From Candidatus Azambacteria bacterium (GTDB lineage Bacteria; Patescibacteriota; Minisyncoccia; UBA10092), in the NCBI GenBank assembly GCA_003455995.1, contig DMPO01000001.1:14945-78944 (forward strand): a stretch of 64,000 nt of DNA, in the 5' to 3' direction. The notes beneath the pieces were generated by a model. It was not told the origin of the DNA, did no database searches, and saw only the letters and a program-made list of their open reading frames with translations. The position numbers and the translations under genes were made by a program. How positions within the stretch are numbered: the stretch's first letter is position 1; each line of letters opens with the position of its first letter. Shown one piece after another: positions 14,762 to 62,957 of the stretch.

Positions 14762-16149
14762 AATTCTACAATTTTCTTACCCGTAAAAAAGAAAACTTTA
14801 AGTCCTTGCGCCCCAAGCAAGTTGGTTTTTACGCTTGCGGGCCGACGGTTTACGACTACGCGCACATCGGCAATCTGCGGACTTATATTTTTGAAGACAT
14901 TCTGAAACGAACACTGGAATATAACGGCTATAAAGTTAATCACATAGTAAACATCACCGATGTGGAAGATAAGATTATCCGCGAGTCGCAAAAAACCGGT
15001 AAATCCATCGCCGATTTCGTCAAGCCCTATGAAAAAGCGTTTTTTGAGGACTTGAAAAAATTGAACATAGAAAAAGCGCAAAAATATCCGAAAGCGACGC
15101 GGCATATTAAAGAAATGATAAAAATTATCGAGGCGCTTCTCAAAAAAGGATTGGCTTATGAATCCGACGGTTCAATTTATTTTGATATTTCCAAATTCTC
15201 CGCCAAAGGCGGATCCGCCTCTGTCGGAAAGTACGGAAAATTGAGCGGTCTGAAGAGCCGGGAGCTAAAGGCGGGCGCGCGAGTTGATGTCGATGAATAC
15301 GACAAGGCAAGCGCCGAGGATTTTGTTTTGTGGAAAGCCCCAAAGGAGAGCAATCTCCCTACTTGGAGCGCGTCTTTCGGCGCCGGCCGCCCCGGTTGGC
15401 ACATAGAATGTTCGGCGATGTCCATGAAATATCTGGGCGAAACATTCGATATTCACGCCGGCGCCGTTGATTTGCTGTTCCCCCACCATGAAAATGAAAT
15501 CGCCCAGTCCGAAGGAGCGACCGGCAAACCGTTTGTAAAATATTTTATTGAAGGCGAACATTTGTCGGTTAACGGCGAGAAAATGTCCAAATCCTTGGGC
15601 AATATATTCAATCTCCACGATTTGGAAGCGAAAAAATTCGATCCCCTCGCCCTTCGTTATTTGGCGCTTACCGCCCACTATCGTTCAAAACTGAATTTCA
15701 CTTGGGAGTCGCTCCAATCCGCCCAAAACGCGCTATCTAATTTAAGAGACTTAATTGTTAATCTGAAAAACCAACCGCGTAGCGATGTATTAATACATGA
15801 TAACCAAAAAATCGTTAACCGATTTAAGAAAAAATTCTTGGGCCGCATCAACAACGATATGGAAATGCCGGCCGTCGTGGCGCTTTTATGGGAAGTGGTA
15901 AAATCCGAAAAATTAAGCCCCAAAACAAAATACGATTTGATAATTGATTTTGATAAAGTTTTTGGGTTGAATCTCGGCAAAATAGAAGTTAAAAAAATTC
16001 CGGTGAAAGTTTTGCAATTGGCAAAAGAACGCGAAAAATATCGTCAAGCAAAAAACTTTGCCAAATCCGATATCCTCCGCAAAAAAATAGAATCCCTCGG
16101 CTGGCTCATTGACGACTCCTCCTCCGGCCCGAAAATAAAAAAGAAATAA
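14752..16149 (+). CDS. cysS: Cysteine--tRNA ligase
   Basis: HIGN motif (HIGNLRTY), KMSKS motif and the zinc-binding Cys/His pattern. The GC-rich palindromic element sits in-frame at 15203-15234. Confidence 0.93.
   Translation: MALKFYNFLTRKKENFKSLRPKQVGFYACGPTVYDYAHIGNLRTYIFEDILKRTLEYNGYKVNHIVNITDVEDKIIRESQKTGKSIADFVKPYEKAFFEDLKKLNIEKAQKYPKATRHIKEMIKIIEALLKKGLAYESDGSIYFDISKFSAKGGSASVGKYGKLSGLKSRELKAGARVDVDEYDKASAEDFVLWKAPKESNLPTWSASFGAGRPGWHIECSAMSMKYLGETFDIHAGAVDLLFPHHENEIAQSEGATGKPFVKYFIEGEHLSVNGEKMSKSLGNIFNLHDLEAKKFDPLALRYLALTAHYRSKLNFTWESLQSAQNALSNLRDLIVNLKNQPRSDVLIHDNQKIVNRFKKKFLGRINNDMEMPAVVALLWEVVKSEKLSPKTKYDLIIDFDKVFGLNLGKIEVKKIPVKVLQLAKEREKYRQAKNFAKSDILRKKIESLGWLIDDSSSGPKIKKK
15203..15234. 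repeat. GC-rich palindromic element (copy 2 of 3), in-frame within cysS
   Basis: CTCCGCCAAAGGCGG-AT-CCGCCTCTGTCGGAAA encodes ...SAKGGSASVGK... in cysS; compare ...SARGGPASGGK... at copy 1 in the exonuclease tail. Confidence 0.55.
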
Positions 16150-29262: not shown

Positions 29263-29295
29263 TAAAAAGGGGCGTCAAGCCCCTGTTTATTTTTG
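29258..29295. terminator. Bidirectional intrinsic terminator after trmD
   Basis: AAAAATAAAAA-GGGGC-GTCAA-GCCCC-TGTTTATTTTT, symmetric with A/T tracts on both sides. Confidence 0.65.
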
Positions 29296-29997
29296 ATGTT
29301 TTTTGCGCCACTCTTCTATTTTTTTGTGGTTGCCGGAAAGAAGAACTTTAGGAACTGGATATTTTTTATTTTTATATTTAATGACTTCCGGACGGGTATA
29401 TGTCGGAACGCCGACGCCGTATCTTTTTTCTTCAAGCGATTCGTCTTTGCCTAAAACGCCCGAAATGTGGCGCGACACCGCGTCAACGACGATCATTGCC
29501 GGTAACTCTCCTCCCGTTAAAACATAAGGACCGATAGATAATTCGCTAATTTTTAATTTCAAATTTCTAATTATTTTTTTAATTCGTTCGTCTATCCCTT
29601 CGTAGTGACCGGCAATCATTACAATATGTTTATATTTTTTTGCGAAGTCGCTCGCCATTTTAGAATTAAATTGTTTGCCCGAAGCGGAAAAAAGAATTAC
29701 AAGGGGGTTTTTCAACCCCTCTTTTTTTCTCCCCTTATCAGGGGAGAATTTATTGAGCGCTTTTGCAAGCGGTTCGATTTTGAACACCATCCCCGCTCCT
29801 CCGCCGTATGGTTTATCGTCAACCCGCCCGAATGACCATTCGGTCGGGCGGGCTTTCTTATGTTTGTCGTTAGTAAAATCGCGGAGATTGACTATATTTA
29901 TTTTTATTTTCCCGCTTTTCCGCGCGCGTTTAATAATACTCTCGTTTAGATAGGAATCGAAAATTTTCGGAAAAATTGTAATTATGTCGAATTGCAT
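29287..29997 (-). CDS. trmD: tRNA (guanine37-N1)-methyltransferase TrmD
   Basis: SPOUT fold; conserved ...GHYEGIDERI... and GGELPAM motifs. Contains a ~30-aa insertion (KFSPDKGRKKEGLKNP...) relative to typical TrmD. Confidence 0.9.
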   Translation of the reverse strand: MQFDIITIFPKIFDSYLNESIIKRARKSGKIKINIVNLRDFTNDKHKKARPTEWSFGRVDDKPYGGGAGMVFKIEPLAKALNKFSPDKGRKKEGLKNPLVILFSASGKQFNSKMASDFAKKYKHIVMIAGHYEGIDERIKKIIRNLKLKISELSIGPYVLTGGELPAMIVVDAVSRHISGVLGKDESLEEKRYGVGVPTYTRPEVIKYKNKKYPVPKVLLSGNHKKIEEWRKKHQK

Positions 29998-30046: not shown

Positions 30047-30367
30047 TTATAGTTGTCTTAAATCGTCAACAACTTGATCCATATCTCTTGTCGGTCTTTC
30101 TCTCACGGGACGAGTCGAACCCTCCGGCTCTTCTATCTTCAAATTGACGCGCGCGTTGTGACGGGCACCAATTATGCGAAGCAGAGTTCGAATGGCTTTC
30201 GCGGTGGATCCCTGTCGGCCGATAAGCATTCCCATATCTTCTTGGTTTACTTTAAGGTCTAAAAGGACTCCCATCTCGTCCACCTTGCGGTCAATTTTGA
30301 CATCATCCGGATGATCAACAATCGACTTCACAAGGTACTCAAGAAATTCCTGATCAACATTAGCCAT
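30047..30367 (-). CDS. KH-domain RNA-binding protein (KhpA-like, UPF0109)
   Basis: KH GxxG loop (IGRQGSTAKAIR); lies between rpsP and trmD as in conserved operons. ATG 30365-30367 is used. Confidence 0.75.
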   Translation of the reverse strand: MANVDQEFLEYLVKSIVDHPDDVKIDRKVDEMGVLLDLKVNQEDMGMLIGRQGSTAKAIRTLLRIIGARHNARVNLKIEEPEGSTRPVRERPTRDMDQVVDDLRQL

Positions 30368-30458
30368 TTCTTTGAACAATCTTTTTAAAGTTTTAGTAGG
30401 TCGACCTCCCCAAAGGGGTAGCTACTAATTGTCCGCAATATATCAAAAATTGATATGC

Positions 30459-30487
30459 TTGTCAAACGATTTTTTAATACTTACCAT
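30459..30487 (+). promoter_or_regulatory. Promoter-like TTGTCA-17-TACCAT immediately upstream of repeat copy 1
   Basis: -35 TTGTCA (30459-30464), 17-nt spacer, -10 TACCAT (30482-30487). Confidence 0.35.
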
Positions 30488-30536
30488 GGAGCCAAGAGCC
30501 GGCAAACCGGATGGACGAACCGAGAAACGGTGTTTA
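30484..30536 (+). repeat. 53-bp direct repeat, copy 1 (CCATGGAGCCAAGAGCCGGCAAACCGGATGGACGAACCGAGAAACGGTGTTTA)
   Basis: Matches 52 of 53 nt with 31513-31565. The flanks diverge completely on both sides. Confidence 0.85.
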
Positions 30537-30667
30537 TTGATTTTCCCAGCCCTGTGGACAACTGTTTGCAACTGTCAACGCATTGTGCTAATATAAGAAC
30601 GATCGAAAGATCGAGATTTCTAAAGCTTGGAGGCCTCGCAAGAGGTCTCCTTTGCGTTTTTATTTTG
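30494..30667 (+). ncRNA. Candidate sRNA (~170 nt) whose 5' module is repeat copy 1
   Basis: Predicted TSS is ~7 nt after the -10. Internal CGATC-GAAA-GATCG hairpin. Intrinsic terminator GGAGGCCTC-GCAA-GAGGTCTCC plus TTTGCGTTTTTATTTT (30629-30667), overlapping the 3' end of the convergent NYN gene. Confidence 0.4.
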
Positions 30668-31403
30668 TTATTTCTTTTTTCCAACAAATGAAATCCTTTA
30701 TTTTCTGTATATCAAATATGAATAACCCGCCCTCGACTAATTCGCTTAATTCACTGGAAACCCTTCTCGCAGTGGCAAATAATGTAACTCTTTTATCGTC
30801 TTTTAACAATTGTCTAACGGGATCGGCGAAATCACTATCCCCGCTCCATAAAATAAAATTATCAATATTATTTTTATCATAATCAATTAACATATCCCTT
30901 CCGATTTCAACATCAAAATTACATTTTAAATCTTCAACCGATTTGACGCCTTGATTGTTAAGTTGCTTTAACTGATTGTTTAAAAATTCTATCGTTTCAA
31001 TTGTTAATTTTTGTAATAAAGGTTTTCTAATAAATTCTTTTAAAATATTCGGCGAATTCGGGGGGACACTGGAAACATCTATAGAAAGCCGCATTATTTT
31101 TACAGGTTTTGTCTTAACATCGTATCCGAATCTGCCGATATCTTTTACAAACCGTTCTGATTCAGCGTCTCCTATTAAAGTGCCATTGTAAAATTTGACG
31201 GCGTTGATAGTGTCAAAAGAATCTAAAAATTGTTTTAATCTTTTGGGCTCAATATGCCAACCCAGTTTAACCGACCATGGCTTAACATTCGCATAGTCAA
31301 TATAAATATTTGTTTTTCCGCCAAAAATAATTTCTAATTCTTTAATCCTGTCGGGGTGCTGGTTGGATAATTCTTTTAATCTCGGAGTTTTAGGATTGAA
31401 CAT
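30660..31403 (-). CDS. NYN/LabA-like (DUF88, PIN-like) predicted RNase
   Basis: N-terminal NIYIDYANV and central ILWSGDSDFADPVRQLLKDDKRVTLFA match NYN-domain catalytic motifs. Flanked by the 53-bp direct repeats. Confidence 0.6.
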   Translation of the reverse strand: MFNPKTPRLKELSNQHPDRIKELEIIFGGKTNIYIDYANVKPWSVKLGWHIEPKRLKQFLDSFDTINAVKFYNGTLIGDAESERFVKDIGRFGYDVKTKPVKIMRLSIDVSSVPPNSPNILKEFIRKPLLQKLTIETIEFLNNQLKQLNNQGVKSVEDLKCNFDVEIGRDMLIDYDKNNIDNFILWSGDSDFADPVRQLLKDDKRVTLFATARRVSSELSELVEGGLFIFDIQKIKDFICWKKEITK

Positions 31404-31512
31404 TCATTTTTTAATTAGTTTTATTCGTGGATTATTATAAGATAATCTCAAATTTATGTAAATAAAAAAATCGCTTCACAATCGTGAAATGATTTTTTTT
31501 GCGCGATACTCG

Positions 31513-31565
31513 CCATGGAGCCAAGAGCCGGCAAACCGAATGGACGAACCGAGAAACGGTGTTTA
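31513..31565 (+). repeat. 53-bp direct repeat, copy 2
   Basis: CCATGGAGCCAAGAGCCGGCAAACCGAATGGACGAACCGAGAAACGGTGTTTA, one G/A difference from copy 1. Confidence 0.85.
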
Positions 31566-31929
31566 GAGGAGAGAGATTTATACCCTCTCCGAATAAACGG
31601 GTCGGGCATTTCTAACTCGCACTGTCACCCGATCCGATTCCGTTTACCGACTCGTTGGCTCGATAGCGATTATCTTTTCTGTTTCGTCCTCCGCAACTTG
31701 GAACCATTCCAAGCGCCGGACTTAACAAGAGGATTTATCCTCTTCTGAAACTTCCACTGAATAAGTGAAAATCTCGGAATAAGAGGGAGAGTTGCGTATC
31801 TCCCATGGCTTGCCGAAACCACTCGGCTGCCATACGGCGGGGAACCCTCCCCGCAAACTTCTTGATGGATCGAGTCTAGTCCCATTTTGGGAATCCCTCG
31901 TCAAGCCGTCCATCAACGGCAACGGCAAC
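31566..31929. other. GC-rich, ORF-poor structured non-coding region (strand and class unknown)
   Basis: About 360 nt with many local and long-range complementarities (GAGGAGAGAGATTTATACCCTCTCC; AAACGG...CCGTTT; GGGAATCCC; a GGCAAC x3 run). GC is well above the window average. Only short overlapping ORFs are present, none with a start context. Confidence 0.4.
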
Positions 31930-32235
31930 CTATGAGAGCGCTGCCCCTATAACTTCTATCGCGGCCTTGCGGCCTGCCTCCATCCCCCGGCCATGCGCAA
32001 ACCTGGCCGCATTCTGGCCCTGCCCGGACGGGTCTCTCTTAGACTCTCCGGACTCATCTGCCCACCTGGTATACTCTACATATGCCAGGTAGCACTCCTT
32101 TTTATAGGCCGCATTAGCGGCCTTTTCTGCCACTGCCTTTACAGCAGCGGCCTTTTCTGCCACTGCCTTTACAGCAGCGGCCTTTGCGGCTTCAGTGCCA
32201 AAAATTCGGCACAAAAAATTTACTAATTTTTTCAT
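31930..32235 (-). CDS. Small Ala/Lys-rich protein with internal 10-aa tandem repeat; GC-rich gene
   Basis: Strong SD (GAAGGAGGAAAAA-ATG) at ATG 32233-32235. An exact 30-nt tandem duplication at 32121-32180 encodes AAVKAVAEKA x2. Gene GC is ~55-60% versus ~38% for the window. Confidence 0.5.
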   Translation of the reverse strand: MKKLVNFLCRIFGTEAAKAAAVKAVAEKAAAVKAVAEKAANAAYKKECYLAYVEYTRWADESGESKRDPSGQGQNAARFAHGRGMEAGRKAAIEVIGAALS

Positions 32236-32454
32236 TTTTTCCTCCTTCGCCCCGCCTCCCTTTCGGTGAGGGCTTATGGGCACTCCATACTCTAACCGCT
32301 AGTAAGAAGGTTTCTGGAGACCAGACGGGTTTAGGTTTGCTCTCCAGCTTATCTCATTACTAAAAAAGGCGATTGAGAGCTCTTTACTTACTATACTTAA
32401 TATAGAGAAGAGAGTTTACAATCGCCTTTTTACAAGATTTACGGCTCTTATACG

Positions 32455-32482
32455 CCGCCTGTCCGCCTCTGGCGGAACCCTC
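32455..32482. repeat. GC-rich palindromic element (copy 3 of 3, partial), in the 5' region of the small protein gene
   Basis: CGCCTGTCCGCCTCTGGCGGAACC contains the exact 15-mer CCGCCTCTGGCGGAA. Confidence 0.5.
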
Positions 32483-32559
32483 TCCTCTAAAGAAAGTATT
32501 TAATATTAAAATGTTAATATTCAGCCAACTTTCACCTTACCTTTATAGTATAGCGTATC

Positions 32560-32605
32560 TAACAAACCCTGTCAAGTTTTTTGACGGGTTTTGGCGGGTT
32601 TTGGC
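32560..32605 (-). terminator. Hairpin plus T-tract downstream of rpsP
   Basis: On the minus strand AAAACCCGTCAA-AAAAAC-TTGACAGGG-TTTGTT. Confidence 0.45.
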
Positions 32606-32887
32606 TTAAATAAGCGGTTTTTTGGATGCTTTATGAACCGGTTTTTTGGCGCCGGAAATTATGCCCTGCGAAATAAGCAAATTATGAATTGAATCCGACG
32701 GTTGGGCGCCCTTGCCAATCCAATATAGGATCCTGTCTTTATTCAAACTGACTTTCTTTGTTTTGCGGTCAATGTTGCCGAGCAACTCCAAATACTTCCG
32801 GCGCGGGCCGGCGGTTTTTTGAGTCGCCACGACTCTGAAAGTCGCGGTATGTTTTTTTCCTACTTTCTGCAATTTAATGGTGAGCAT
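32606..32887 (-). CDS. rpsP: 30S ribosomal protein S16
   Basis: MLTIKLQKVGKKHTATFRVV... matches the S16 N-terminus. Confidence 0.9.
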   Translation of the reverse strand: MLTIKLQKVGKKHTATFRVVATQKTAGPRRKYLELLGNIDRKTKKVSLNKDRILYWIGKGAQPSDSIHNLLISQGIISGAKKPVHKASKKPLI

Positions 32888-32899
32888 ATTATTTAAAAC

Positions 32900-34534
32900 T
32901 TACATTTCCGGCATCCCCGACATTCCGCCGCCCATTGGCGGGTTATTTTTTTCCGGCAGATCGGCCACAAATGTTTCGCTGGTCAACAGCATCGAAGCCA
33001 CCGAGACGGCATTCTGCAGGGCGGTTCGGGTAACTTTCAACGGATCTATGATGCCGTCCTTAATCATATCGGCGTATTCTCCCGTGACGGCATTAAAACC
33101 GATTCCTTTTTCTTTGCTCCCCACAACTTGAATCACCTCATTGTCGTCTTTGTTGGAATTTTTGGCAATGGCGCGCATCGGCGCTTCCAGCGCGTTGACA
33201 ACTAAATTGACGCCCTTGGCTTCGTCGCCGAATTCGGTTTCGCCGACCAATTTGGCATTCTTGATTTCCTTAGCCGCTTCAAACAGCGCCACTCCGCCTC
33301 CGGAAACAATCCCCTCCTCAATGGCCGCTTTGGTCGCCGAGACGGCGTCCTCAATCCTGAATTTCTTTTCCTTCATTTCAATTTCGGTGGCCGCGCCGAC
33401 TTTAATGACGGCCACGCCGCCGGCCAGTTTCGCCAGCCGTTCCTGCAGTTTTTCTTTGTCAAAACCGGATTCGGTCTTTTCCATCTGCGACTTGATTTGC
33501 TTGATTCTTTTCTCTATTTCCGCCTTTGAACCGGAACCGCCGACAATGGTGGTATTGTCTTTGGTGGCGACCACTCTTTTGGCGCTGCCCAAGATATCCA
33601 AATCGGCGCTTTCCAATTTCATTCCCTTATCTTCGGAAATAACTTCGCCGCCGACAATGGCCGCGATATCTTCCAACATCTCTTTCCGCCGATCGCCAAA
33701 CCCCGGGGCTTTAATCGCCAGAACATGAAAAACGCCTCTCAATTTATTGACCACCAGAGTCGCCAGCGCTTCGCCTTCAATATCATCGGCGATAATGACC
33801 AGATTTTTATTTCCCGATTTCACCACTTTTTCGAGCAATGGCATTATTTCGGCCAGCGAGGAGATTTTCTTGTCGGTTATTAAAATAGAGGGTTTTTCCA
33901 AAACCGATTCCATCCGCTCGGTGTCGGTTACCATATAAGCGCTGACATAGCCGCGATCAAACTGGAGCCCTTCAACCAATTCATAATCCACGCCCAGAGT
34001 TTGCGCCTCTTCAACGGTTACCACGCCTTCTTTGCCGACTTTATTGATCACCTCGGCAATCAGCGAGCCCATTTCTTCGTCGTTGGCGGAAATGACGGCA
34101 ACATCTTTTATCTTTTCTTTGGTTACCGGTTTGGCATTCTTCTTTAATATATCAGAGACCTTGGACATCGCTTTGTCCATCCCCTTTTTCAAAACCATCG
34201 AGTTGGCGCCTGAATTGATTAAATTGATGCCTTCGGCGATCATCGCCTGCGCCAAAACCACCGCCGTGGTGGTGCCATCGCCGGCGACATCGTTGGTTTT
34301 TGAGGCCGCCTCTTTCACCAGCGAAGCGCCGATATTTTCAAACTTGTCTTTCAATTCAATGTCTTTGGCGATGGTGACACCGTCGTTGGTGATGGTCGGC
34401 GCGCCGTAGCCCTTGTCCAAAACGACATTGCGGCCGCGAGGACCGAGAGTAATTTTTACGGCATTGGCCAATTGGTCAACGCCCCTCTTGATAGCTTCTC
34501 TGGCGGCAACGCCGCTGATTATTTGTTTTGCCAT
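32900..34534 (-). CDS. groL: Chaperonin GroEL
   Basis: AAKQI... N-terminus, ATP-binding GDGTTTA and a C-terminal GGM-like tail ([10 protein letters not shown]). Confidence 0.97.
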
Positions 34535-45419: not shown

Positions 45420-45503
45420 AACAAAAAGCCCGTGTCCACTAGGTCTTGCGACCCAATATTTCTTTCGAAATATTGCCCATCGAAGAGTTGTAGAACACGG
45501 GTT
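45420..45503 (-). terminator. Long compound hairpin plus T-tract downstream of the 45672..46391 gene
   Basis: Outer stem ACCCGTGT/ACACGGGC encloses an inner AATATTTC-TTTC-GAAATATT hairpin, followed by TTTTTGTTT on the minus strand. Confidence 0.45.
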
Positions 45504-45671
45504 CTATATCTTCGATGGGTCTTTGTACCATGCCAGTATTGCTACTTGGTTTAGGCCACTTACTTATTAAATTTTATACTTATTACTATATTACAAATTT
45601 TTCTAAAAATCCAATAACAAATAAGCGGAGCTTGCTTCAGTTCTCAGTTAAGGTGTAGTGATTAAAAAAAC

Positions 45672-56610: not shown

Positions 56611-56951
56611 AATTTTCGTTTTTCTACTTGTTTACAATAGAAAAGGCAAACACCTCTTTTGATTTTCTTAATAATGTTTCCTACTGGGTCTTTTACCTCG
56701 ACGAAAGTAATTGACCGAATGGCTTTTTCTCCCTTTTTTACTCGATACCCAAGCTTCCACCATTGGGCGAAAGTAAGGGCATTATTATACGGGTCATACT
56801 TCTTCACTTCTTCATGACCCCAGCGCTTTTCTATCTGTTTGGCTACCAGGTCATAGGTAACCGAAGACCCTGTATAGGGAGATATACGGGGAGGAACACT
56901 CATAATTTCATTTACACTTTGCATATACGGCTTGATTATCACTAACGCCAA
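56607..56951 (-). CDS. Hypothetical protein
   Basis: A 114-aa ORF whose stop overlaps the SymE-like gene start (4-nt overlap). Confidence 0.4.
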   Translation of the reverse strand: MALVIIKPYMQSVNEIMSVPPRISPYTGSSVTYDLVAKQIEKRWGHEEVKKYDPYNNALTFAQWWKLGYRVKKGEKAIRSITFVEVKDPVGNIIKKIKRGVCLFYCKQVEKRKL

Positions 56952-57145
56952 AATACGCTCGACTAGGCATATTAATGAAGAATTTGGCTAATTAATTATT
57001 TTTCTTCATCAATAATCAAGTGGTGTGAATTAAGGTTTGGGGGGTGATTCGATAGTTTAAAATAGAGGCTATGGATGTTATAAAAGGGAACCCGGAGACG
57101 GTTTTTCTTGATGGGGGGGCATTTTTGGATTCTTTTTGGGCTTTA

Positions 57146-57335
57146 AAAATCAACTGGCCTAAAAATTTTTGCGCAGATTTTAGAAAAAAGAGGCACAGAT
57201 AAGCCAAAATAATATTTTCTCGCAGAGAAAATATTATTAAAGTCACGGCGTGACTTTATTGACTTTATTAATTTTAACTTTTTCTAATTTTTCAAACTTT
57301 CCTTAAAAATCACTTGGCCTAAAAAAATTTTGCGA
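57146..57335. repeat. ~30-bp imperfect direct repeats (AAAAATCAACTGGCCTAAAAATTTTTGCG / AAAAATCACTTGGCCTAAAAAAATTTTGCG) plus palindromes, in the non-coding region of the island
   Basis: Direct-repeat copies at 57146-57175 and 57305-57335. Perfect palindromes AATATTTTCTC-GCA-GAGAAAATATT (57218-57240) and AGTCACG-G-CGTGACT (57242-57258). Confidence 0.55.
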
Positions 57336-57479
57336 AAAATTGAGGTTAAAGGGTGGGCAAGATAAAAAACACGGCTATAAAAGTCGTGTTTTGGCTTATT
57401 TATGCCAAATTGGTTGACTTCCGTAGAAATTTTTGACCTTTAGTATAATTTAATAAGAATCAAAGTTGTAATTCGATTT

Positions 57480-57960
57480 TGGTTCCTAACTTTTAAAACA
57501 AATGGTGAGCGGCCGGAGATAATAAAGCCCGGTACGTTGCAAAGGCAGCAATGCCAATGCGGGGAGATACTGGCAGGGTGTGGGGGCGATCGTTAACCCG
57601 CCTGTTGGAGGCCATTAAAATAACGACTCTCTCTGATGCTCTCTAGACAGCATTCTAGAGTCCTTATGCGGACAGTGCCTGATACGAATCGGACATTGTC
57701 GACATGAGGTTCAGATAGGGATGCAAACGCCTACGTAGTCCAACAGGTGAGCGTGGGTATCGCATACCAAAGCGGCGGGGCCTGAGGCAAAACTAATTGG
57801 TTCGGTGGCTGTAATGCCATGCGGATGAGCTAGGGGTACCCTGTACGACAGTCTGCCTGACGTGTACACCGAGAGACAGCGGGATTATGTACACAGGACC
57901 AAATGACGTATCCAAATAGGACGGCATTCTCCCCCCTCTTGTCCAAATCGGTAGCAGGGT
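57480..57960. other. GC-rich (~55%) ORF-free structured region, candidate ncRNA of unknown class
   Basis: No ORF of 60 aa or more in ~760 nt. Numerous stems (CTCTAGA-N6-TCTAGAG; GTGTACA-N19-TGTACAC; CCGGAG...; GGGGCGATCG...). Sharp compositional contrast with the AT-rich flanks. Confidence 0.4.
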
Positions 57961-58007
57961 AATTCACAAATCAATAACTGAAGTTTTTAATAGTAATATT
58001 TAAATCA

Positions 58008-58553: not shown

Positions 58554-58709
58554 GTTATTTTAACGAAGTCAGAATATCCCCTATGTCTGTTTTAAGACAA
58601 ATTGTTCGCTACTGCCGTGGCCCCGTTAGGATAGAAGCCGGTTATTGTCTTAAATTGTATTCCTAAAGATGCTCAATTTTACCTTTTGGTACTGTAGTAT
58701 ACTAAGAAT

Positions 58710-58955
58710 ATGACTACAAAAGAAAACAAAATAAAGCTGGCGAGTATCATTTCGGTGTTTGTGCATGACGATATTGGCATTTTGGAAGCGTACACTGCAA
58801 CATCATGTTCATTTGTCGTCATTGAGGGTATCAGTTTTGGTTATCAATTCATTGAATCTGAAAATAGTGAAACTAATTTAAACAGGGCTTTTGACATTCT
58901 TTTTGACGAAACACTCAAGCGTTTAAAATCAAAGGGCATCCATTTGTCACTATAG
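58710..58955 (+). CDS. Hypothetical small protein
   Basis: An 81-aa ORF with no recognisable motif. Confidence 0.3.
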   Translation: MTTKENKIKLASIISVFVHDDIGILEAYTATSCSFVVIEGISFGYQFIESENSETNLNRAFDILFDETLKRLKSKGIHLSL

Positions 58956-58978
58956 ACAATTAAGTATAAAATAAACAT

Positions 58979-59155
58979 ATGGAATTTTTTACAAGAAAAG
59001 AAGTCGCAGAATTTTTTAGAGTTAACCCTAGAACAGTGGAGCGTTGGTTGAGAAATGGAAAACTAAAGGGCTATAAACTTGGCGAAGGCAAGACAGCGCC
59101 ATGGCGCATCGATATGGTGGAAATAAAAAAGTTTTTAGCAAAGAATAAAGTATAA
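58979..59155 (+). CDS. Excisionase-type HTH (Xis/HTH_17-like) protein, 58 aa, below the ORF-track size cutoff
   Basis: Manual translation MEFFTRKEVAEFFRVNPRTVERWLRNGKLKGYKLGEGKTAPWRIDMVEIKKFLAKNKV. Ends 4 nt before the serine recombinase ATG. Confidence 0.55.
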   Translation: MEFFTRKEVAEFFRVNPRTVERWLRNGKLKGYKLGEGKTAPWRIDMVEIKKFLAKNKV

Positions 59156-59159
59156 ACAT

Positions 59160-61832: not shown

Positions 61833-62722
<890 letters not shown>

Positions 62723-62723
62723 T

Positions 62724-62957
62724 ATGTATAACAATCCCATCAATCTAAAAAATCAAAAAACCACCTGTTATTTCTGCGCTCAGAACTTGCAGGAAATTGA
62801 TTACAAAAGCGCGGAGCTTTTGCGTCGTTTTATTTCGGCGCAGGCAAAAATTATGCCCAGAAAACGCAGTCATCTATGCGCCAAACATCAGCGCCGTTTA
62901 GCCATGGCCATCAAACGCGCCCGTTTCATGGCGCTCCTCCCCTTCACCGCCAGATAA
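62724..62957 (+). CDS. rpsR: 30S ribosomal protein S18
   Basis: CYFCAQNLQEIDYK... KHQRRLAMAIKRARFMALLPF matches S18. Confidence 0.9.
   Translation: MYNNPINLKNQKTTCYFCAQNLQEIDYKSAELLRRFISAQAKIMPRKRSHLCAKHQRRLAMAIKRARFMALLPFTAR

Follow-up and report, generated by a model that had tools for sequence, protein, structure and literature searches.

The window analysed here (the whole stretch of DNA, 64 kb in length, from a Patescibacteria genome) carries groEL, rpsP, a 101-codon open reading frame (ORF), a NYN gene, khpA, and trmD in this order, all on the minus strand (Table 1). Between the 101-codon ORF and the NYN gene is a 364-nt stretch that a preliminary description, made from the sequence by eye, had singled out as GC-rich, free of ORFs, and densely structured, and had tentatively read as either a plus-strand non-coding RNA (ncRNA) or a long structured 3' untranslated region (UTR). 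Its placement is as claimed there: it is bordered on one side by the end of the small ORF and on the other by the second copy of a 60-nt direct repeat (DR2), beyond which the NYN gene starts. Downstream of the NYN gene lies the first copy of this repeat (DR1). Three strong promoters were detected, all of them on the minus strand.

Table 1. Genes and sequence features around the flagged stretch (positions are those of the window).
Feature	Position	Strand	Remarks
groEL	34534..32900	-	
rpsP	32887..32606	-	
Whole insertion	32617..30468	-	~2.15 kb; approximate bounds, where homology to the closest relative (L014) ends
Sigma-70-like promoter	32575..32547	-	TTGACA-17-TATACT, 11 of 12 positions; just past the rpsP stop codon
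Long terminator-like hairpin	32431..32363	-	Followed by U6, A-run on the other side; -24.6 kcal/mol; between promoter and ORF
Orphan ORF, 101 codons	32235..31930	-	AAGGAGG 5 nt ahead of ATG; predicted Ala/Lys-rich product
Two tandem 30-nt units	32116..32175	-	Inside the ORF; each predicted by hand as an 8-bp hairpin
Flagged stretch	31566..31929	-	364 nt, ORF-free, 50.8% GC, directly 3' of the 101-codon ORF
Rod hairpin	31674..31505	-	170 nt; 5' arm 31674..31620, apical part 31619..31562, 3' arm 31561..31505 (= DR2); most significant fold in the 64-kb window
Direct repeat copy 2 (DR2)	31506..31565		60 nt; 3' arm of the rod hairpin
Intrinsic terminator-like hairpin	31500..31466	-	AT-rich, ~16 pairs including A/U run pairs, U7; -13.0 kcal/mol
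NYN module	31468..30558	-	Promoter, NYN coding sequence, and conserved 3' tail
NYN promoter	31462..31434	-	Strong; second strong promoter-like site
NYN coding sequence	31403..30660	-	
Direct repeat copy 1 (DR1)	30477..30536		Solo duplicate downstream of the NYN module, without a pairing partner
khpA	30379..30047	-	
trmD	29997..29287	-	
TCCGCCnnnGGCGGA sites	663, 1303-1332, 10877, 15199-15228, 32462-32476		Genomic REP-like or terminator motif by look

The GC content of the flagged stretch is 0.508, versus 0.403 across the whole window. The highest value for any 300 nt in the window (0.593) is reached at 31701-32300, and is therefore centred on the adjacent small ORF, not on the flagged stretch. 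On the minus strand, the longest frames at 31566-31929 would encode 71 and 68 aa; on the plus strand the longest would encode 77 aa and starts inside the repeat. The reported lack of a Shine-Dalgarno context was borne out on reading the sequence. Both strands fold far better than expected, the minus strand at -142.5 kcal/mol (shuffles -114.1, z -5.41) and the plus strand at -132.8 kcal/mol (shuffles -101.0, z -5.84); none of 100 dinucleotide shuffles folded as well on either strand. With z-scores of about -5.5 on both strands, a GC-rich, ORF-poor, and strongly folding stretch is confirmed.

The dense set of stems in the preliminary description is real insofar as the folding is strong, but its significance is concentrated in a single rod hairpin that reaches outside the stretch. 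Besides the 5' arm and the apical part of this rod, the flagged stretch holds seven short, mostly perfect local hairpins, and those aligned in a row over 31690-31929 give only modest z-scores (-1.6 to -3.4). Outside the terminal rod the z-scores are modest and alike on both strands, so that the rod, which crosses the lower boundary of the flagged stretch (31566), supplies most of the fold signal. When 852 windows of 150 nt on both strands were compared, 31516-31665 on the minus strand was the most extreme fold (-69.4 versus -42.6 kcal/mol, z -10.3), ranking ahead of the window with tRNA-Lys.

As minus-strand RNA, the rod hairpin is predicted to form 64 base pairs, eight of them G.U, at -83.8 kcal/mol (z -6.06; 20% of the ensemble), with only 1x1 mismatches and small bulges over ~55 bp of stem. 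The 5' arm matches the 60-nt repeat in inverted orientation, at ~75% identity. On the plus strand the same hairpin is 16 kcal/mol weaker (-68.0 kcal/mol, z -3.6). The arms differ by eight transitions, of which seven are G.U pairs in the main stem on the minus strand and favour that strand, versus one A.C mismatch that favours the plus strand; the asymmetry has a one-sided p of ~0.035 and could also stem from strand-biased mutation. The two repeat copies are also informative, as they differ at three positions, at all of which DR2 keeps a Watson-Crick pair in the rod, whereas DR1 in its place would give two mismatches and one wobble and an energy of -74.3 kcal/mol. Together, the G.U asymmetry and the pairing of DR2 suggest, modestly but consistently, that a minus-strand RNA is under constraint.

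The strand bias bears directly on the first option of the preliminary description, a plus-strand ncRNA starting after DR2. The plus-strand fold of the flagged stretch does beat its shuffles, and the two terminator-like hairpins (31466-31500 and 32363-32431) are each flanked by two runs and could act on either strand; the former, with an A-run on one side and a U-run on the other, looks bidirectional. However, no plus-strand promoter was found, the rod is 16 kcal/mol weaker on that strand, seven of its eight strand-informative differences favour the minus strand, and every neighbouring gene lies on the minus strand together with all three strong promoters. We therefore favour the minus strand because of promoter, terminator, gene orientation, and the 7:1 excess of G.U over A.C, and regard a plus-strand ncRNA as very improbable.

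On the minus strand, we infer a transcription unit of ~1.05 kb that would begin at the promoter just past rpsP, run through a leader with the long terminator-like hairpin, and reach the Shine-Dalgarno sequence and the 101-codon ORF; after the ORF, it would continue through the flagged stretch and the rod hairpin into the hairpin and U-run of the second terminator. This AT-rich terminator ends the GC-rich unit just ahead of the NYN promoter, and it is here, not in the 364 nt themselves, that the stem-loop and U-run of an intrinsic terminator are found. The leader is AT-rich and carries a copy of a REP-like palindrome. Its long hairpin might serve as an attenuator, or might mark where a separate RNA of ~180 nt ends (32357-32540 on the minus strand). 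As this hairpin lies between the ORF and its sole detected promoter, and no second promoter was found for the ORF, transcription of the ORF with its tail may depend on read-through, or may not occur at all.

The geometry of a 3' UTR is nonetheless present, since the flagged stretch is on the same strand as the ORF and directly 3' of it, with no promoter between them and a terminator at the end. Of the two options in the preliminary description, a long structured 3' UTR of the small ORF is thus the better fit in terms of promoter, terminator, and orientation, although translation of this ORF is a prediction only. A canonical Shine-Dalgarno sequence and an AT-rich, unstructured start region favour translation. 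The codon positions, in contrast, have GC contents of 0.60, 0.49, and 0.54 (first, second, and third, respectively) and show no enrichment at the third, and by our own estimate an open frame of 101 codons is not improbable in sequence of 54% GC. A HMMER search of 1.84 billion representatives returned only the 101-aa product itself and a 91-aa strain variant lacking one 30-nt unit, in agreement with a word-indexed search; in some strains there is one such unit instead of two. No family was found for the product in Pfam, PADLOC, PHROGs, or NCBIfam, and its AlphaFold model is a generic helical hairpin without a significant match in PDB. With neither a third-position signal nor a homologue, the ORF does not appear to be clearly coding.

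The GC-rich unit and the NYN gene together occupy a place where two genes are otherwise neighbours. In L014, the closest relative that we found in GTDB (KhpA and GroEL each 88% identical), the gene order is groES-groEL-rpsP-khpA-trmD, the rpsP stop codon is ~100 nt from khpA, and homology to the window resumes only at 30467..30382. Similarly, of 71 other Patescibacteria loci, 66 have fewer than 600 nt between rpsP and khpA, and the few large gaps among these loci hold unrelated protein genes. Because rpsP and khpA stay adjacent in L014 and in these 66 loci, the ~2.15 kb between them in the window is a lineage-specific insertion, i.e., a variable islet within an otherwise tightly conserved junction. 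Relative to its counterpart in the sister species, ribosomal protein S16 lacks 22 C-terminal residues (window 32606-32620 versus L014 4813-4891), and the insertion boundary is apparently within the last codons of rpsP.

No relative of any part of the GC-rich unit was found. In a blastn search of 80 khpA loci, none holds DNA similar to it, and against phages and plasmids the only matches were low-complexity ones to the Ala/Lys-rich tandem repeat. When halves of the direct repeat and three of the hairpins served as exact patterns, they gave 0 matches in GTDB genomes and 0 in viral contigs, and scans of metagenomes returned only the same organism and two chance 25-nt matches in contigs of 57-58% GC. 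A covariance model of the rod hairpin, run over 774 kb of related loci, picked up only a generic long hairpin in one of them (L029). A decayed pseudogene was also considered and rejected: with the ORF removed, the six-frame translation of 31470-32545 had no match at E<=1. The window sequence is identical to GCA_001774215.1 (MEZB01000001.1) and to many groundwater metagenome contigs; this population is near-clonal, and its variation consists of one SNP (31627, at an unpaired position of the rod) and the change in copy number of the 30-nt unit.

Among known RNAs, Rfam 15 at gathering score found only LOOT and five tRNAs in the whole window, none of them near the flagged stretch, and relaxing the threshold to E<=10 over 30300-32700 added four weak matches, all outside 31566-31929 and all far below gathering score. 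The families covered include group I and II introns and riboswitches. A tmRNA would combine a tRNA-like acceptor and T arm with a tag reading frame, and ARAGORN detected none in the window. That the stretch could not be matched by eye to RNase P, tmRNA, SRP, or 6S RNA agrees with these searches. A conserved structured ncRNA would be recognised by homologues with compensatory changes, and no homologue of any part is available for such a comparison; as far as sequence can tell, the flagged stretch is not a gene of a conserved RNA family.

One comparison is with 6S RNA, a rod of ~180 nt that is conserved across relatives and whose large central bubble imitates an open promoter. The rod hairpin resembles 6S RNA (RF00013 and relatives) in being rod-like, largely double-stranded, ~170-190 nt long, and on the strand of its neighbours. 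Unlike 6S RNA, it has a nearly continuous stem of ~55 bp with no large central bubble, it matches no Rfam 6S model at E<=10, and the unit to which it belongs is missing from the sister species L014, whereas 6S is a housekeeping RNA. A second comparison is with the large RNAs OLE, GOLLD, ROOL, HEARO, and raiA, which are families defined by conservation and covariation across many genomes. The GC-rich unit is similar to them in size (0.4-1 kb), GC enrichment, abundance of stems, and location in or near variable or mobile DNA, but gives no covariance-model match and is a sequence without any relative.

In a rival reading, the whole GC-rich unit (~31466-32300, perhaps extending to 32540) would represent a new, large, structured ncRNA or dual-function RNA, in which the flagged stretch would be the 3' domain and the ORF incidental or secondary. 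Consistent with this, stems are pervasive and extend into the ORF (windows 31966-32265, within or near it, fold with z -3.2 to -6.5), the ORF has neither homologues nor a third-position signal, the terminal hairpin favours the minus strand, and the unit is enriched in GC within an AT-rich genome, which is typical of structured RNAs. Against it, the start region described above favours translation, the lack of homologues means that no covarying pair can be demonstrated, the unit is missing from the sister species, and an inverted duplication of DNA can account for the terminal hairpin. We consider a new structured or dual-function RNA of this kind unlikely.

The other part of the insertion is the NYN module, which is 88.5% identical without gaps to three loci (L008-L010) where its neighbours are unrelated to those in the window, with a gene for a PDDEXK nuclease on one side and one for an aminotransferase on the other. 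The corresponding empty site is present within the window itself at 516-524, where the PDDEXK and aminotransferase genes have overlapping stop and start codons. NYN homologues number more than 2000 proteins (65-91% identical), and their neighbours differ in nearly every genome examined, including integrase, NgoPII-type restriction-modification, hsdM/hsdS, Mrr, and PemK-like toxin genes. We examined the contexts of the module in the window (30558-31468) and at L008, L011, L013, L102, L103, L105, L106, and L108. In four of nine distinct loci, the NYN gene is flanked by locus-specific direct repeats at a spacing of 894-1160 bp, i.e., 60 nt at 95% identity in the window, 63 nt at 100% in L105, 29 nt at 90% in L102, and 22 nt at 91% in L108. 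On this evidence, the NYN gene behaves as a mobile cassette of ~1 kb.

In the window, DR1 and DR2 are spaced by 1029 and bracket a 969-bp segment with the NYN gene, which resembles the arrangement of att sites or target-site duplications, as do the repeats around the NYN homologues. Unlike such elements, the bracketed segment contains no integrase or transposase, and at 22-63 bp the repeats far exceed the duplications that classical transposons leave. Insertion of the NYN module probably created the 60-nt repeat by duplicating the target. In the history of the locus this would be a later step, in which the module landed immediately behind the hairpin and the 60 nt of the 3' arm were duplicated, giving rise to both repeat copies; most simply, the GC-rich unit and its hairpin were already in place by then.

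An RNA shared by all NYN genes upstream of their start was rejected, as the upstream regions in L008, L011, L013, L102, and L105 have no similarity to the GC-rich unit beyond that of shuffles, and in L103 the NYN gene starts 10 nt after hsdM. The insert at L008 (4616-4935) starts with a promoter, followed by ~290 nt of structured sequence (z -3.25, with a possible 34-codon ORF) and a terminator; it has no sequence similarity to the GC-rich unit in the window. Downstream of the NYN stop codon (30600-30655 on the minus strand), a motif is conserved in seven loci, consisting of a hairpin, then AAGCUUUAGAAAUC, then a second short hairpin. The first hairpin of this motif has compensatory changes on both sides at six of ten pairs, and Rfam gave no match to the motif, which may be a cassette-specific RNA or DNA signal.

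Of the two marks of junk or foreign DNA named in the preliminary description, lack of transcription and lack of conservation in relatives, the second applies here, with no similar DNA at 80 khpA loci and none in the nearest relative, and it points to young, possibly foreign DNA. The GC-rich unit could thus be a foreign or selfish remnant (palindromic, MITE-like, or island debris) that folds by chance and is under no selection at the RNA level. In favour of this, the unit has a GC content foreign to its host, the two arms of the hairpin derive from a single sequence as inverted copies that have diverged, the ORF is separated from the promoter by a terminator, and the islet also carries the NYN gene, which is mobile and in relatives sits among restriction-modification, toxin, and integrase genes. 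MITEs and palindromic repeat elements are marked by many copies per genome, terminal inverted repeats, and a short target duplication; here, a 12-nt perfect inverted match (32491-32480 and 31573-31562) might represent TA-flanked terminal inverted repeats. However, such a match is expected ~0.15 times by chance in 2.2 kb by our own estimate, which makes it weak, and with these supposed terminal repeats as its ends, the element would include only one of the two hairpin arms, which does not suit a transposed unit. An element with terminal inverted repeats at 31566-32487 was therefore set aside, since it would split the hairpin arms between element and flank. Further, the 64-kb window (of a genome of roughly 585 kb) contains only one full and one half copy of the hairpin sequence, the half copy being explained by the NYN insertion; the G.U asymmetry and the pairing of DR2 suggest some constraint; and the sequence is identical across many samples, though in a near-clonal population. 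Non-functional young DNA is in our view a serious alternative, albeit on the unlikely side.

Taken together, the flagged stretch belongs to a species-specific insertion without relatives and most likely represents an untranslated tail on an orphan transcript rather than a conserved gene for an RNA. Our preferred explanation, to which we tentatively assign a probability of roughly 0.45, is that the flagged stretch forms 3' UTR of a minus-strand transcript, orphan and confined to this species, with the rod and the terminator at its end; there it would plausibly stabilise the 3' end and stop read-through. We infer that the string of hairpins and the rod would most plausibly act as a 3'-end stabiliser and a transcription stop; the former would shield the upstream RNA against 3' exonucleases, and the latter would insulate the NYN gene and khpA-trmD from read-through.

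Such an arrangement is comparable to the REP and ERIC palindromes of bacterial 3' UTRs and to stabilising 3' ends made of a hairpin plus terminator, in that stable stem-loops lie between an ORF and its terminator, and in that inverted copies of a single sequence make up a long imperfect palindrome. Unlike REP and ERIC elements, the hairpins here are unique sequences within the 64-kb window, with no sign there of a genomic repeat family, and the rod with its 64 pairs is much longer than a REP unit. Separately, a short REP-like palindrome, TCCGCCnnnGGCGGA, occurs at seven sites in the window versus 0.16 expected, twice as back-to-back pairs.

A more far-reaching combination would be that the unit is a functional, lineage-restricted, structured or dual-function RNA of ~1 kb, and that its rod was the landing site of an undescribed kind of mobile cassette, a free-standing NYN (PIN-like) nuclease gene of ~1 kb with a conserved, covarying 3' hairpin, which moves between intergenic sites in Patescibacteria and makes target duplications of 20-60 bp. 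We regard this combination as a long shot.

Elsewhere in the window, the LOOT RNA (RF03000) at 45441-45557 on the minus strand scores 75.4 bits versus a gathering score of 46.4. Further long stretches without an ORF of at least 100 codons are found at 56950-58007, 58554-59159, and 62238-62957, and none of the three has an Rfam match at E<=1. Within the first of them, 57166-57315 and 57616-57765 fold well (z about -4.4 to -5.5).

By itself, the flagged stretch carries little weight, being a singleton in a tiny streamlined genome, and it cautions that a recent insertion, instead of a conserved gene for an RNA, may lie behind the strongest fold of a stretch of DNA. Its context is more valuable, as a conserved ribosomal-gene junction is split here by a small variable islet, and the mobility of the NYN gene and its covarying 3' hairpin are more promising leads than the flagged stretch. 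If confirmed, the NYN cassette would have implications for the spread of PIN-like nuclease genes among Patescibacteria and for the reason why these genes are found among defence genes.
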